Positions 2,156 to 5,754 of a stretch of DNA of 7,999 nt are shown here, in pieces. Under the pieces are notes generated by a model. That model saw only the letters and a list, made by a program, of their open reading frames with translations. It did no database searches and was not told the DNA's origin. The DNA lies in IMG/VR virus record IMGVR_UViG_2684622669_000018, positions 1 through 7,999 of that record; one strand, written 5' to 3'. The position numbers and the translations under genes are program-made. The number at the start of each line of letters is the position of its first letter. Within the stretch, counting starts at the first letter, position 1. Source of the stretch: a virus. Its lineage: Duplodnaviria > Heunggongvirae > Uroviricota > Caudoviricetes.

Positions 2156-2818
2156 TCAGGCCAATTCATCATTCACTCCCTGCGGCGGTTCTGGTAGCAG
2201 CATCCAGTACAAGGCGTTCCCTAACCACGATAAAGTGCCGTCGCTCAACTCCACGTATTCCCCTTGTACCTGTCCTGCCATATACTCGCCGTGCTTTGAA
2301 TAAATTAAAACCCAATCGTCTTGAGCGGGAATTCGCTCACTACAGCTTATCCAACCATCCGGAGTTACCGGAGAGTTGCCACCGGGAATATTTTCCGGAA
2401 TATTTTGTTGTGCGTTTTGTGGTTGTTCGGATTTACCCTGAAGCATGGCGGCGCGGCAGGCGTTCCAGCCAGCTGTTCGCCCAAGCGCGTAAACTTCAGA
2501 TGGATCAAGATAATCAATGTCATGCCCGTCCTCATCGTCGTTCTCAGGTAATGCAGCAGGTACTACTGGTACTGGAGGGGCGGCATAAACAGGAATAACG
2601 TCCGATTGATCTTTATTGCTTTCATCCGTCAAAGCCCAGAATAATTTTCCGGCCGGATGTTTGAAAATATAAGCAACTGGCTCTGCTTCCAGTGATGCCA
2701 GTGCAATTCGTGCCAGTTCTTCCGCTTCTTCTGCTGGCAGTACAACGTTGCTACCAGGTCCGTATGTTTCGCGCCACTGCTTGATTGTCAGCAGTCGCTC
2801 TTTGGTAATAGTGGTCAT
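2156..2818 (-). CDS. DUF551 domain-containing phage protein (220 aa)
   Basis: ATG at 2818..2816 preceded by AGGAA with 7-nt spacing; TGA at 2158..2156. The C-terminus PDGWISCSERIP...WVLIY...LSWLGNALYWMLLPEPP fits the DUF551 pattern common in lambdoid early regions. The central region is Pro/Asp/Glu-rich and looks like a low-complexity linker. Its ATG overlaps the upstream gene's TGA (ATGA at 2818..2815). Confidence 0.8.
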   Translation of the reverse strand: MTTITKERLLTIKQWRETYGPGSNVVLPAEEAEELARIALASLEAEPVAYIFKHPAGKLFWALTDESNKDQSDVIPVYAAPPVPVVPAALPENDDEDGHDIDYLDPSEVYALGRTAGWNACRAAMLQGKSEQPQNAQQNIPENIPGGNSPVTPDGWISCSERIPAQDDWVLIYSKHGEYMAGQVQGEYVELSDGTLSWLGNALYWMLLPEPPQGVNDELA

Positions 2819-3330
2819 GCCGCGTTTCCTTCTTTCTTATTAACAATTACACCGTCATATATTTCATTAAGGTGCCCTCTCAACTCCATGCGCCTTAATG
2901 CAGATAACATGTAATCGCATTCAACCTGCTTATTTCCAGTAAATGGCTTATCGTCAGGATTACCCCAACAGCAATTACCCTTGGGCCACCCATGCACTTT
3001 CCGTACTCTTCCGTTAACAACGTGAAGTAATCCCCAGCCAGGTGGTAAATCCTCAACTGAAATAATTCCCGGCTCACTAATAAAGAATCGCCAGTCGCCC
3101 ATTCCAAGAGATGGATTTTTACGAAAACGCTTTTTTCTATCTGCCAACAAGTCAGCACGAGAACACTTCGCCTCTATCAGGCATGATGCTGAATTTCTGA
3201 ATCCCATAGCATCTGGCTGTTCTCCGGTACTGGTTACAGCTATAAAGCGGTCATGAAAACAAACCTTGAACCCGTTGCGCTTAAGGAACTTATACGCAAT
3301 CTGACAGAGTTCGCGGTGTGTTAACGCCAT
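2815..3330 (-). CDS. Putative PD-(D/E)xK-motif nuclease-like protein (171 aa; possibly MmcB-like), Cys-rich C-terminus
   Basis: The ORF-track ORF 2815..3492 is a 5' over-extension that overlaps the Ea22-like gene. The internal ATG at 3330..3328 is preceded by AGGAGAG with 4-nt spacing and lies 1 nt after the Ea22-like TGA (3334..3332). The motif GEQPDAMGF...SCLIEAKCSRADLL resembles the PD...ExK nuclease signature; the C-terminus carries a GNCCWGNPDD...ECD cysteine cluster. Confidence 0.6.
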   Translation of the reverse strand: MALTHRELCQIAYKFLKRNGFKVCFHDRFIAVTSTGEQPDAMGFRNSASCLIEAKCSRADLLADRKKRFRKNPSLGMGDWRFFISEPGIISVEDLPPGWGLLHVVNGRVRKVHGWPKGNCCWGNPDDKPFTGNKQVECDYMLSALRRMELRGHLNEIYDGVIVNKKEGNAA

Positions 3331-3331
3331 A

Positions 3332-3991
3332 TCACTCTCCTTTGATGCGAATGTCAGCGGCGCGCTCGGCTTCACTTTGTTCCCAAAACCACTTGTGAAG
3401 CTCCATGAGCTTTTCGTCAATCGGTGCATATTTGCGATTAAAGTAGGCCTGAGCATCTTTCTCAGATTCGTCCGGCAATTCGCCTGGGCCAAACAGTGTG
3501 TTATAAATCCATGCCAGTCCGCTTTTAGCGTCGCCAGTTGCCTGCCATTCGATAATCGCAGCCTGCATGACCAGAATGTTTTTCCCGATTAACAGGTCCA
3601 GCTCTTTGAACCGGTTGCGGATGTATGCATTCTCGCTTTGTAATTTTGCGTTGCGCTTCTCTGCGGCTTCCAGCTCAACACGCAGCTTCCCTACAGTTAG
3701 CGCAATTTCCTCGTTCTCCTGATCGCGGCGTTTTATGTATTGCTGGTTTCTTTCCCGTTCATCCAGCAGTGCCTGCACTACTTCAGGGTTGAAAGCTGCG
3801 ATATAACGAGCATTAGCAGCAGCTTTTTTCTGTCCATCAAACCCAGGCCATTTGATAACATCTTCGCATCGTTTATCACCTGGCGTATGCACCGCATACG
3901 TACCAGTACCCGGCGAAATAAATGCGACCCATTCGCCCTGTGTTGCCTGTTTTGCTAACTCACGCAGTGCCTGATAGTCAATCTTGCTCAC
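3332..3991 (-). CDS. Ead/Ea22-like family phage protein (219 aa from GTG start)
   Basis: The ORF-track start at 4183 is a GTG with no SD, inside the Lar-like gene. GTG at 3991..3989 is preceded by AAGGAGG with 6-nt spacing. The N-terminal domain (IDYQALRELAKQATQGEWVAF...ARYIAAFNPEVVQALLDERE) and the coiled-coil middle resemble the Ead/Ea22 family as recalled. TGA at 3334..3332. Confidence 0.65.
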   Translation of the reverse strand: MSKIDYQALRELAKQATQGEWVAFISPGTGTYAVHTPGDKRCEDVIKWPGFDGQKKAAANARYIAAFNPEVVQALLDERERNQQYIKRRDQENEEIALTVGKLRVELEAAEKRNAKLQSENAYIRNRFKELDLLIGKNILVMQAAIIEWQATGDAKSGLAWIYNTLFGPGELPDESEKDAQAYFNRKYAPIDEKLMELHKWFWEQSEAERAADIRIKGE

Positions 3992-4211
3992 TGTTTGCCT
4001 CCTTTGCTCGCTGATTCCACTCTGCTCTAACCTCTGAATAAAAAATCGCGCAGTCATTTCCAGGCGCTGCATATTTGCTACCAGATTGAGCGCGACACGT
4101 ACCGCATCGAACGAAATAGAATCGACCGCCAGAGCCATATTCAGGGTGATCTGCTTCGCTGGCAACGTGCGCTGCACCGCCACAGAATGGACATGGTAGT
4201 AGGTTGCTCAT
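3978..4211 (-). CDS. lar: Lar-family restriction-alleviation protein (zinc ribbon, 77 aa)
   Basis: ATG at 4211..4209 preceded by GGGAG; TGA at 3980..3978. Protein [12 protein letters not shown]...RCGTC carries the CPFCG plus CxxC four-cysteine ribbon typical of Lar/RalR-like proteins. The start overlaps the stop of the 186-aa gene as ATGA (4211..4208). The longer ORF-track version (from 4244) is an in-frame 5' extension. Confidence 0.75.
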   Translation of the reverse strand: MSNLLPCPFCGGAAHVASEADHPEYGSGGRFYFVRCGTCRAQSGSKYAAPGNDCAIFYSEVRAEWNQRAKEANSEQD

Positions 4212-4768
4212 GAATGCACTCCCTTGTGAAGCTGTTCCGCACAATGCAGCAGGGCGTCAGTCGCCTCTTTCACCGTAACGCAGTCGCCATCGTCCAGCCC
4301 GGACACCGACGCGTGCTTAACGAACGCCGCGTAAAGGTCATCAAACGCCTTAGCCCGGACTTCAGCCAGGAAAGCATCGGTGGCTGGGGTGTCTGATTGC
4401 ATAGACTTTGCGCGATAATCATTCCACCCTCTTGCATATATGGGATTAACTTGCACCCCATCTTTTACGCAATATGCCTGCCCTCCACGGTTGATAACCT
4501 TGATTTCGTCCATAGCGCCAGACTTCAGCCCCGCATTCTCCGCCGCCAGCGCCGAAAACTTCTCGTGTGCCAACTTAACAGCCGCATCAGCCTGCTTAAT
4601 TGACTCAATCGCTTTCTGGTGGTCTTCGGACAGAGCCGAAATCTTGGCCTCCGCTTCAGCAAATTTACGCACCAGATATTCAGCGTTTGTTTCGTTAACC
4701 TTTAAATCTCGTGGGATGCATTGACCTTTCAGAAAACCATCCATCTCAATTAGTGACATTTGTTTCAT
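4208..4768 (-). CDS. Hypothetical protein (186 aa), predicted coiled-coil N-terminal half
   Basis: ATG at 4768..4766 (GGAG about 9 nt upstream); TGA at 4210..4208. The N-terminal half is Ala/Glu/Lys-rich and heptad-like. No family recognised. Translationally coupled to the Lar-like gene. Confidence 0.65.
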
Positions 4769-4945
4769 TTCTTCCCACTCCGCAACATCGCATTCAGATA
4801 TTTGTTTTGATTCACTGATGGAAAAGAATTTCTCTTAAGCAATTCCTCTCTCGATGGCATTGGCTTTACGCGTTAGAGAATAATCATTTCTGCCGGAAGA
4901 ATGCCGGGATTGTATGCAAGTCCTCTCATGGTAAATTCCTCTTTG

Positions 4946-5260
4946 TTAATTTATTCGTATGCCTGCTCTTTCTTCATCGAGTTTTTTTAGCTTGTATCGC
5001 ATAGCTCTTACTGAATAAATTGAGCGGCAGGTTGCAATTGCTATTTCTTCCGCGGTGAACTTACCGAAAAGTGATACTTCGGCTCTTGTCCATCGTCTTC
5101 CACGAAGTCGGCTAACAATGTCAGCGCCAATCCTTGTTGCTTTCGCCATAACTGCTTTTTCAGTCCTTTCCAGTTTTTCAGCGATAACTTCAACTGGCAT
5201 TGTCGCCGCTACTTCGCGCAAGAAATCGACTTCCCATTTCTCCCATGGAGTCTTTTTCAT
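4946..5260 (-). CDS. Hypothetical protein with two Myb/SANT-like repeats (104 aa); possible DNA-binding protein
   Basis: ATG at 5260..5258, 11 nt after the Gp157 TAA, with no clear SD (probable coupling). Internal duplication: WEKWEVDFLREV...EVIAEKLERTEKAV and WTRAEVSLFGKFTAEEIAIATCRSIYSVRAM. TAA at 4948..4946. Confidence 0.55.
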   Translation of the reverse strand: MKKTPWEKWEVDFLREVAATMPVEVIAEKLERTEKAVMAKATRIGADIVSRLRGRRWTRAEVSLFGKFTAEEIAIATCRSIYSVRAMRYKLKKLDEERAGIRIN

Positions 5261-5271
5261 AGGCGATACCG

Positions 5272-5754
5272 TTATTTGATAAGAAGTGAAGGTTTCCCAA
5301 CTTTGAGTTGAGCGCCGGGGATATTTATTCCTGCTTTTAGTTGGTGTTTGATTGCCAACTTGTCGGCTTTAATTGTTGTTTCAAACTCAACGTATTCAGG
5401 AGGAAGGGCGCTTGAGTCGATGATTTCTACAGTTTCTGACGGTTTGCGGATTGTTACCTGGTGAATACCTGCTCGCATCTTTTTCTTGCCAACCATTTCA
5501 AGCGATGACGCTATATATGATTTGATGCTGTCAATCTTATTTTGAATTACTGCGGCTCGTTCATTCAGTGACTTTGCCTCTTCCTTGAGGCGTTCAGCAT
5601 AACCAGATTCATTTTTAATAATGGCGAGAAGTTGCTCTATTTTATCGGTAAATTCTCCTTCCATGCCTTCTATTGTGTCAGCAATCATCTCTGGTTCTAA
5701 ATCTGAATCCATCAATTTTGCGTATTCATTGGCTATTTCATATAGTTTGCTCAC
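5272..5754 (-). CDS. Siphovirus Gp157-family protein (about 160 aa)
   Basis: (V)SKLYEIANEYAKLMD...IADTIEGMEGEF...EMVGKKKMRAGIHQVTIRK...VEIIDSSALPPEY fits the Gp157 family usually found beside phage annealing proteins. The ORF-track start is TTG at 5760; GTG at 5754 has GGAGG 6 nt upstream and is preferred. The 5' end overlaps the recT 3' end. TAA at 5274..5272. Confidence 0.8.
   Translation of the reverse strand: MSKLYEIANEYAKLMDSDLEPEMIADTIEGMEGEFTDKIEQLLAIIKNESGYAERLKEEAKSLNERAAVIQNKIDSIKSYIASSLEMVGKKKMRAGIHQVTIRKPSETVEIIDSSALPPEYVEFETTIKADKLAIKHQLKAGINIPGAQLKVGKPSLLIK

Follow-up and report, generated by a model that had tools for sequence, protein, structure and literature searches.

Does a gene whose start codon lies across the stop codon of its neighbor also work with that neighbor? 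The question is raised by a locus in the window, by which we mean the whole 7,999-nucleotide stretch of Caudoviricetes DNA that was analyzed. On its minus strand the window carries a gene for a 186-amino-acid (aa) protein (4768-4208, ATG to TGA), a 77-aa zinc-ribbon gene of the Lar family (4211-3978), and an Ead/Ea22-like gene (3991-3332, 219 aa, GTG start), and every ORF coordinate given in the first-pass annotation proved exact. The start/stop overlaps that it had described on both sides of Lar are likewise as claimed: (i) the Lar ATG (4211-4209) overlaps the TGA of the 186-aa gene (4210-4208) in an ATGA at 4211..4208, with a Shine-Dalgarno-like AAGGGAG (4225-4219) embedded in the final codons of the 186-aa gene, and (ii) the Ea22-like GTG at 3991, which has a perfect AAGGAGG at 4004-3998, falls inside the Lar 3′ end and creates a 14-nt overlap. 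Junctions of this kind are not confined to Lar. The 186-aa gene begins in the same manner, its ATG sharing an ATGA with the TGA of a truncated DUF2737 gene (4860-4765, minus strand, 31 aa); exact −4 ATGA overlaps occur four times in the window (DUF2737/186-aa, 186-aa/Lar, 171-aa/220-aa, and 103-aa/RecT), and 10 of its 16 consecutive gene junctions overlap. The minus-strand operon context includes int, xis, DUF551, Ea22-like, Gp157/Gam-like, and RecT genes.

The assignment of the zinc-ribbon protein to the Lar family was borne out, and by its profile matches the gene is an ordinary, already known member of that family. It matches Pfam PF14354 (Lar_restr_allev) with 38.5 bits against a gathering cutoff of 28.6 (E = 1.4e-9; residues 3-69 on profile positions 2-58 of 58) and PHROG 599, “Lar-like restriction alleviation protein” (8e-13). 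NCBIfam TIGR03655 (anti_R_Lar) aligns over its full length (1-55 of 55; E = 7e-7), but the score of 29.4 bits misses the cutoff of 39.6; despite this, near-identical proteins receive the PGAP name “Lar family restriction alleviation protein,” and identical proteins already carry the Lar family name in RefSeq and UniRef. A word-indexed homologue search returned 15 clusters. From its sequence, the protein is predicted to form a four-cysteine zinc ribbon (C7 and C10 in CPFCG, C36 and C39 in CGTC) and then a C-terminal helix that carries the motif EWNQR, and P6, C7, P8, F9, C10, C36, C39, E60, W65, and R68 do not vary when the protein is aligned with Rac Lar/RalR and the Serratia and Vibrio-phage homologues. 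An AF2 model (pLDDT 81.5) has three strands and a helix; a Foldseek search of this model against the PDB gave nothing at E ≤ 0.001, with generic Cys4 beta-tent/zinc-ribbon folds appearing at E ∼0.4, and PDB sequence searches with the Lar and 186-aa proteins gave no significant match.

A 283-aa ORF that starts at GTG 4183 and covers 4183-3332 runs through the Lar coding region in another frame, and could be taken to mean that the 77-aa ORF is spurious and that the real gene encodes a long EaD/Ea22-like protein, all the more so as the GenBank CDSs of phages HF4s, ST104, and HK106 use the equivalent long start and leave Lar unannotated. The pattern of substitutions sides with Lar. A comparison of 28 distinct homologues yielded 95 variable columns, 62 of which fall on third codon positions in the Lar frame, and synonymous and nonsynonymous changes stand at 361:87 in this frame versus 45:376 in the alternative one, which indicates that purifying selection acts on the Lar frame; the long frame is open in 14 of the 28 homologues and interrupted in the other 14. 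Pfam and PHROG models match the Lar product, PGAP calls both Lar and a short Ea22, and the Ead_Ea22 domain (PF13935, E = 2.1e-37, residues 2-121 on profile positions 1-122) begins at the GTG 3991 start with its perfect ribosome-binding sequence. A spurious Lar is thus barely credible, and the three deposited phage genomes overlook the gene in favor of a longer out-of-frame ORF annotated on top of it.

What the Lar protein does can be approached through Rac Lar (RalR, ydaB) of the E. coli K-12 Rac prophage, the founder of PF14354 and TIGR03655. Both proteins are small CPFCG...CxxC zinc ribbons with a C-terminal E..WN.R helix, and in both cases the gene is part of the early-left operon of its lambdoid prophage and lies to the int side of recT. 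They differ in that the window protein is 26 to 28% identical to Rac Lar, scores below the TIGR03655 cutoff, has an 8-residue insertion (ADHPEYGS) in the first hairpin and about nine extra residues (PGNDCAIFY, with a fifth cysteine) before the helix, and is encoded without a RalA sRNA counterpart and behind a different upstream neighbor. The Ral gene of lambda sits elsewhere in the lambda early-left operon, and we know of no sequence relationship between Ral and Lar. Ral, the product of an early nonessential phage gene, is reported to relieve restriction by type IA enzymes and to enhance their modification (PMC12707154), the same phenotype as that reported for Rac Lar with EcoKI (King & Murray 1995, as cited in PMC4041452). 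Because of its family membership and homology to Rac Lar, the window protein most likely both alleviates restriction and promotes modification by type IA (EcoKI-like) restriction-modification systems, and would do so acting alone. Rac Lar is the only family member for which restriction alleviation has been demonstrated, a point that we counted against this assignment together with the TIGR03655 score below the trusted cutoff.

Rac Lar is also known as RalR, a reported DNase toxin that is neutralized by the sRNA RalA (PMC4041452), and the window protein, as a member of the same Pfam family, might accordingly be a nonspecific DNase of a type I toxin-antitoxin pair rather than an anti-restriction factor. 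An sRNA antitoxin of the RalA type was not found: the window holds no ralA-like sequence beyond chance matches of 9 to 13 nt, the sole Rfam match at E ≤ 1 is a chance flpD at 3834-3883, and neither strand of 3300-5300 has promoter-like or terminator-like sites. The Lar gene is embedded in a long operon and does not form a separate unit, and its product departs from RalR through its two insertions as well as its low identity. Taken together, these observations make a RalR-type toxin quite unlikely.

The 186-aa protein had been described as lacking a recognizable family. This holds for Pfam (E ≤ 0.1), NCBIfam, and PADLOC, none of which provided one (PADLOC matched neither the Lar nor the 186-aa gene), but not for PHROG 614, which the protein matches almost end to end (E = 4.7e-58; residues 1-185 on profile positions 27-210 of 214), with further piecewise matches to PHROGs 14548, 492, 27745, 368, and 583. 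These sequence matches place it in a mosaic family that is very large: its members are named EaE or HK620 hkaH-like in phage records, and it comprises at least 8,000 database clusters at 90% identity and 1,542 representatives at 50% identity in a representative library. The matches in that library come in pieces (residues 1-85, 67-186, and 126-186), and module swapping among the relatives is visible in the alignment. Four parts can be distinguished: residues from about 1 to 48 make up an N-terminal module, those from about 26 to 83 a long helix or coiled coil, 86-126 a small core rich in beta structure, and 127-186 a C-terminal module of helices. The AF2 model, built with 30 homologues, is poor (pLDDT 58, pTM 0.24) and has a helix at 26-83 and strands at 90-107.

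The likeness to the HkaH/“EaE” proteins of HK620 and other P22-like and lambdoid phages extends to genomic position. ST104 orf9, whose record cites similarity to hkaH, is 69% identical to the 186-aa protein, and the 186-aa gene occupies the same slot after DUF2737: relatives in WCHEC025943, ST104, and HK106, and in about 62 of 80 IMG/VR loci, are preceded by a full-length DUF2737 gene joined to them by the same overlap. HkaH/“EaE” proteins also share modules with the mosaic Ead/Ea22-like proteins, and some relatives carry the Pfam domain Ead_Ea22. The 186-aa protein, unlike these chimeric relatives, gives no PF13935 match at E ≤ 0.1, and it has no direct similarity to the Ea22-like protein of the window; the idea that it is a diverged paralogue of that protein or of DUF551 was rejected (BLASTP E = 5.7 and 1.9, respectively). 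Lambda Ea22 is reported to favor lysogeny. Its three parts, an N-domain, a coiled coil, and a variable C-part (PMC10834534), are arranged similarly to those of the 186-aa protein, which on this structural comparison is probably an oligomeric coiled-coil accessory protein of Ea22-like build, with a short N-domain.

If Lar and the 186-aa protein worked together, they might be expected to travel together, and co-conservation across prophages was among the checks that had been proposed. We found their co-occurrence to be asymmetric. The informative source of loci was the scans of IMG/VR; a single-protein search of genome contigs yielded 9 loci. Seen from the 186-aa side, the association fails: Lar lies directly downstream in 14 of 76 relatives, and the other 62 have no Lar. 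In phage records, close Lar copies (≥95%) occur in 12 enteric phage records compared to 280 for the 186-aa family, and among 5,426 complete E. coli genomes the window Lar is present in 47, compared to 1,127 with pieces of a 791-bp Lar/186-aa query and 9 with the whole pair. Seen from the Lar side, the association holds, but only within Enterobacteriaceae prophages. A member of the 186-aa family, as recognized by a locally built HMM, precedes Lar in 45 of 53 enterobacterial-type loci (≥59% identity), and some member does so in all 28 loci with a Lar identity of at least 96%. No 186-aa relative was detected beside Lar homologues of less than 60% identity; the gene upstream of Lar in Vibrio phage K249 encodes a 112-aa hypothetical protein, and in the Rac prophage ralR follows recT after a 56-nt gap. 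This clade-limited link, with the Lar clade nearly always behind the 186-aa family in Enterobacteriaceae, we counted against independence of the two genes, as it would be compatible with a functional connection confined to that clade.

The junctions themselves tell how much the overlap is worth as a sign of partnership. Downstream of 186-aa relatives, 73 of 78 junctions are −4 overlaps, whichever gene comes next, and at least 13 unrelated families fill this slot, including Ea22-like genes (21), a 104-aa family (18), and Lar (14). On the Lar side, a −4 overlap with the upstream gene is found in 59 of 89 Lar-family loci, 14 of which are distant loci where no 186-aa relative was detected. The claim that tight coupling suggests co-function finds no support in these counts, since a junction that is standard for the array does not mark a two-gene module. 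More specifically, the 186-aa protein and Lar had been read as a two-component anti-restriction or anti-defense module in which translational coupling secures co-expression and stoichiometry. To its credit, this reading can point to the ATGA overlap with the Shine-Dalgarno sequence inside the upstream gene, to the near-constant place of the enterobacterial prophage Lar clade behind a member of the 186-aa family, and to homology shared up to position −182 in about 14 loci, by which the last 60 residues of the 186-aa protein are often inherited with Lar. Yet the same C-terminal module, ending in ..HCAEQLRKGGNQ and the stop codon, also sits directly upstream of non-Lar genes, and across the loci in which Lar is 96 to 100% identical, the identity of the upstream partner ranges from 38 to 99%. 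Together with the many relatives that have no Lar, the variety of genes joined to the family by an identical junction, the different neighbors of Rac Lar and of distant Lar homologues, and the missing PADLOC or Pfam signal for the partner, this renders a two-component module very improbable.

What recurs at the junctions is a short sequence rather than a gene pair. The left boundary (linker) of Lar, CTTCACAAGGGAGTGCATTCATGA at 4208..4234 on the minus strand, encodes the tail ..LHKGVHS and stop codon of the 186-aa protein and holds both the AAGGGAG and the Lar ATG. About a dozen other Lar loci have unrelated sequence upstream, and in these the DNA homology breaks off at −23; the tails ..QLRKGVQS and ..QLHKGVHS (each followed by the stop) are kept even where the remaining upstream protein differs. 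A generic variant of this linker, CTTCGCAAAGGAGGCAACCAGTGA, is found at most other junctions of the family. We rejected the possibility that the ..KGVQS tail is specific to Lar, as the relative P0256 has this tail and then a non-Lar 106-aa gene in a nin region. The right boundary (3960..4006, minus strand) comprises CAAAGGAGGCAAACAGTGAGCAAGA and the opening codons of the Ea22-like gene and compares with CAAAGGAGGCAACCAGTGAGCAAGA of the 186-aa family junctions; it is the linker that also follows members of the 186-aa family, and its reading frame here is a different one, in which it encodes the Lar tail ..KEANSEQD and stop. This frame-shifted reuse of the linker at the 3′ end of Lar accounts for the 14-nt overlap between Lar and the Ea22-like gene. 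Homology breakpoints on the right cluster at +17 to +19 beyond the Lar stop; besides those at −23 and +18, further clusters lie at −182, −343, and −730. The notion that lambdoid phages carry short conserved boundary sequences is an accepted one (Susskind & Botstein 1978 and Clark et al. 2001, both cited in PMC3029335), and the sequence described here resembles them in that about 25 nt recur at junctions and coincide with the starts and ends of homology between phages. The ..QLRKGG.. / AAAGGAGG..RTGA linker is a candidate for one of the boundary sequences described for HK620.

We therefore consider it highly probable that Lar and the 186-aa gene are independent neighbors in a shuffled accessory array of a lambdoid/P22-like E. 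coli prophage. The array would correspond to the accessory region (“ea”/exo-xis-like) within the early-left (PL) operon and be made up of small, freely exchangeable genes joined by boundaries of about 25 nt, each comprising the final codons of one gene (..QLRKGxxx and stop) and, for the gene that follows, a Shine-Dalgarno sequence and a start codon that overlaps the stop as A/GTGA. Lar would be a 275-bp cassette (about 4234-3960) with such a boundary on each side, slotted between the HkaH/EaE-like 186-aa gene and the Ead/Ea22-like gene, the next occupant of the array, and its entry most likely took place by homologous recombination at the boundaries. It would be made early upon infection or induction. 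The overlap probably results in translational coupling, which would keep the downstream genes of a long polycistronic mRNA translated; such coupling would apply to every gene of the array and be uninformative about partnership, and the 186-aa protein would have a role separate from that of Lar.

A different kind of connection is suggested by P0256, which has an Acb1-like anti-CBASS 2H phosphoesterase in exactly the central position of the 186-aa family. The N-module, coiled coil, and C-terminal helices of this family may form a “carrier” scaffold whose central domain is swapped between counter-defense effectors, in a hot spot extending from DUF2737 to Ea22; in a narrower variant, Lar may require the C-terminal module of the 186-aa family, in Enterobacteriaceae only. 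We regard such a carrier role, in either form, as unlikely. Were it true, the beta-rich core at aa 86-126 would be an uncharacterized anti-defense effector, and the DUF2737-to-Ea22 stretch a linker-recombined counter-defense hot spot with Lar as one of its cassettes.

Under the preferred reading of independent cassettes, the overlap that prompted the idea of a module is the default junction of the array and carries little weight as a discovery, and the 186-aa gene is one among thousands of copies of a known, uncharacterized prophage family. More generally, start-stop overlaps in lambdoid early operons are poor evidence of partnership, and the linker that joins ..QLRKGxxx and stop, a Shine-Dalgarno sequence, and RTGA offers a clear worked example of how translation initiation and module exchange can reside in one sequence.

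The window covers the end nearest the integrase gene in a lambdoid/P22-like E. coli prophage, and all of its genes are on the minus strand. In transcription order, recT (6649-5738) comes first, followed by genes for a Gp157/Mu-Gam-like protein (5760-5272) and a 104-aa D5-like regulator (5260-4946), a truncated DUF2737 gene (4860-4765), the 186-aa ORF (4768-4208), the 77-aa zinc-ribbon ORF (4211-3978), a GTG-initiated Ead/Ea22-like gene (3991-3332), a 171-aa gene (3330-2815), a DUF551 gene (2818-2156), and then a DUF4222 gene, a 114-aa gene, xis, and int. Scanning both strands between 3300 and 5300 returned no promoter-like or terminator-like sites, and the genes form a single operon. For the Gp157/Mu-Gam-like gene, the probable start is GTG 5754 (product MSKLYEI...), which has GGAGG 7 nt upstream; TTG 5760, the first in-frame start from the ORF finder, is less likely. 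None of 5,426 complete E. coli genomes holds at least 80% of the 8-kb window at a single location (75% in 7 pieces is the most found), and pieces of it are present in 3,823; this exact mosaic is rare although each module is common. The DUF2737 gene encodes 31 aa versus 54 aa in WCHEC025943 and HK106, and the 85-nt gap 5' of it, which contains an 18-aa ORF, adjoins the 104-aa D5-like regulator gene (4765-4945 region); truncation and gap together look like a recombination scar joining two different early-left operon types. PADLOC model PDLC02890 "DpdH" matches residues 107 to 214 of the Ea22-like protein (3335-3673; E value, 2.9e-37), probably because the Dpd-island model has taken in an Ea22-like gene from a prophage, and not as a sign of defence function. 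The 171-aa protein (2815-3330) shows by eye a D...E-x-K pattern (PDAMGF...CLIEAKCS) resembling PD-(D/E)xK nucleases. Its PHROG matches are 9263 and 631, both of unknown function, and, weakly, phrog_5429 "DNA repair protein."

The assignment of the zinc-ribbon protein to the Lar family in the first-pass annotation is supported, as the 77-aa product exceeds the Pfam Lar_restr_allev threshold (38.5 bits versus 28.6) and matches PHROG 599 "Lar-like restriction alleviation protein" (8e-13); it falls under the stricter TIGR03655 cutoff (29.4 versus 39.6). The identical protein occurs on 479 contigs, under the public-database name "Lar family restriction alleviation protein." It shares 26 to 28% identity with Lar (RalR) of the E. 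coli K-12 Rac prophage, relative to which it has two insertions; the two share, without change, PCPFC, the second CxxC, and the E..W..R motif of the helix. An AF2 model (pLDDT 81.5) predicts a three-stranded zinc ribbon followed by a C-terminal helix, and no solved structures with significant resemblance were found. That the protein is instead a DNase toxin like RalR, belonging to a type I toxin-antitoxin pair, is unlikely, as searches found no ralA-like RNA, antisense promoter, or Rfam match. Elsewhere, one Lar copy (locus L022, 4001-4234), otherwise 99% identical, is interrupted by an in-frame stop at codon 19, apparently making it a pseudogene. The ∼50% identical, 125-aa homologue of Vibrio phage K249 (L175, 2501-2878) has a C-terminal extension resembling DUF551 (WISVEDKLPEE...YWQPLPNNPE); the window has DUF551 as a gene of its own, two genes downstream of Lar.

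The Lar ORF is unannotated in the deposited phage genomes HF4s, ST104, and HK106. In HF4s (L002, 3029-3841) and HK106 (L004, 3502-4512), a long EaD/gp32 coding sequence is annotated across it in another frame, whose window counterpart is a 283-aa ORF from GTG 4183 (3332-4183); in ST104 (L003, 3580-4371), orf8 begins further downstream and Lar is nonetheless unannotated. Across 28 distinct homologous sequences, third positions of the Lar frame hold 62 of the 95 variable columns, the ratio of synonymous to nonsynonymous changes is 361:87 in the Lar frame versus 45:376 in the long frame, and only 14 of them keep the long frame open. It is therefore the Lar frame that codes, and this test makes it extremely improbable that the 77-aa ORF is spurious. 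Because the codon-position test rejects the long frame, the annotation of HF4s, ST104, and HK106 looks like a recurrent misannotation.

The junctions are as first described: ATGA at 4211..4208 joins the 186-aa gene to Lar, and the Ea22-like gene starts inside the Lar 3' end. A Shine-Dalgarno sequence (AAGGGAG, 4225-4219) lies within the final codons of the 186-aa gene, and GTG 3991 of the Ea22-like gene stands behind AAGGAGG, 14 nt ahead of the Lar stop. From this tight coupling, the first-pass annotation had argued for co-function, possibly as a two-component anti-restriction or anti-defence module, and expected the two genes to be co-conserved; co-function is not supported, and co-conservation holds in one direction only, and there only locally. 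Overlaps are found at 10 of 16 window junctions, four of them exact ATGA, including that between DUF2737 and the 186-aa gene just upstream. In the best 80 IMG/VR loci that encode relatives of the 186-aa protein, 78 junctions with the next gene are readable, and 73 of these show the same −4 overlap; the next gene comes from at least 13 unrelated families (Ea22-like, 21; 104-aa family, 18; Lar, 14; methyltransferase-like, other zinc-ribbon proteins, and more), and Lar lies downstream in only 14 of the 76 loci with room for it. Lar is also much rarer than its supposed partner: window-type Lar occurs in 47 of the 5,426 complete E. coli genomes, where pieces of the 791-bp pair are present in 1,127 and the whole pair in 9, and the phage records include 12 enteric ones with close copies (≥95%) and 101 from Vibrio phages with more distant copies, versus 280 for the 186-aa family.

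The association read from Lar to the 186-aa protein is a local one. Wherever Lar is at least 96% identical (28 loci), a 186-aa family member lies upstream, and this member is 38 to 99% identical to that of the window while Lar is 96 to 100% identical. Upstream of Lar in the 87 to 94% clade lie distant family members or genes with only the tail in common, and beside Lar homologues below 60% identity no relative was detected; a 112-aa hypothetical gene precedes Lar in phage K249, and recT does so in Rac. In 14 distant loci, Lar has a −4 overlap with an upstream gene not detectably related to the 186-aa protein. Since the overlap is common in the window and independent of the next gene, Lar is the rarer gene, and the reverse association is local, overlap here does not mean co-function. 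The near-constant presence in Enterobacteriaceae of some 186-aa family member upstream of the window Lar clade, together with the frequent co-inheritance of its C-terminal 60 aa with Lar, would fit a true two-component module, but the same C-terminal module, with a generic tail, also precedes non-Lar genes; we regard such a module as very unlikely, and the two-gene interpretation is not supported.

The 186-aa protein was thought to have no recognizable family, which is true of Pfam, NCBIfam, and PADLOC but not of PHROG 614 (unknown function), which matches it over its full length (4.7e-58); several other PHROGs match pieces. Phage records name it "EaE protein," and its homologue ST104 orf9 is recorded as resembling HK620 hkaH. 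The family is very large (at least 8,000 clusters scored at 90% identity; 1,542 representatives at 50% identity, with piecewise matches to residues 1 to 85, 67 to 186, and 126 to 186) and its alignment is modular, with a conserved N-module, an optional coiled-coil segment, a small conserved core, and a variable helical C-part closing with a conserved tail, ..QLRKGGNQ-stop or ..QLHKGVHS-stop. Relatives swap parts for other domains (DUF551, Ead_Ea22, and one Acb1-like). In the last, P0256 (L176, 3001-3714), an Acb1-like domain (anti-CBASS 2H phosphoesterase, PF23474, 32 bits) replaces the small central core between the same N-module and a ...QLRKGVQS tail; its gene comes after DnaB in a nin region, and the next gene, at −4, encodes 106 aa and is not Lar. 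Kinship of the 186-aa protein with the window's own Ea22-like or DUF551 proteins was rejected, as they show no similarity. Its AF2 model is poor (pLDDT 58), yet predicts a long helix at residues 26 to 83, which is consistent with the three-part architecture described for lambda Ea22 (PMC10834534).

The last ∼25 nt of 186-aa family genes form a conserved DNA element, with a generic form, CTTCGCAAAGGAGGCAACCAGTGA, and a Lar-linked form, CTTCACAAGGGAGTGCATTCATGA; this element carries the codons of the protein tail, the Shine-Dalgarno sequence, and the start codon with which the next gene overlaps. When other Lar loci are compared with the window, DNA homology breaks at −23, −182, −343, and −730 from the Lar ATG on the left and at +17 to +19 beyond the Lar stop on the right; these discrete breakpoints define a minimal Lar cassette of ∼4234-3960 with one linker on each side. 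The right-hand linker (CAAAGGAGGCAAACAGTGAGCAAGA, 4006-3982) differs from the generic form by one base and is read in the Lar frame as ..KEANSEQD-stop; its TGA is out of that frame, so Lar runs 11 nt longer and overlaps the Ea22-like gene by 14 nt. Short conserved boundary sequences mediating module exchange in lambdoid phages (Susskind and Botstein, 1978; Clark et al., 2001) are cited in PMC3029335, and the window linkers match the idea as cited there.

Each start has its Shine-Dalgarno sequence inside the gene before it, and ribosomes ending on one gene probably re-initiate on the next, a generic form of translational coupling that would run the length of the PL transcript. Lar would be made early and, by analogy with Rac Lar, probably shifts type IA restriction-modification enzymes from restriction to modification of incoming or induced phage DNA. 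It would act without the 186-aa protein, a putative oligomeric coiled-coil accessory protein. Both this Lar gene and its location are of known types, and the gene is joined to its neighbors as all genes there are.
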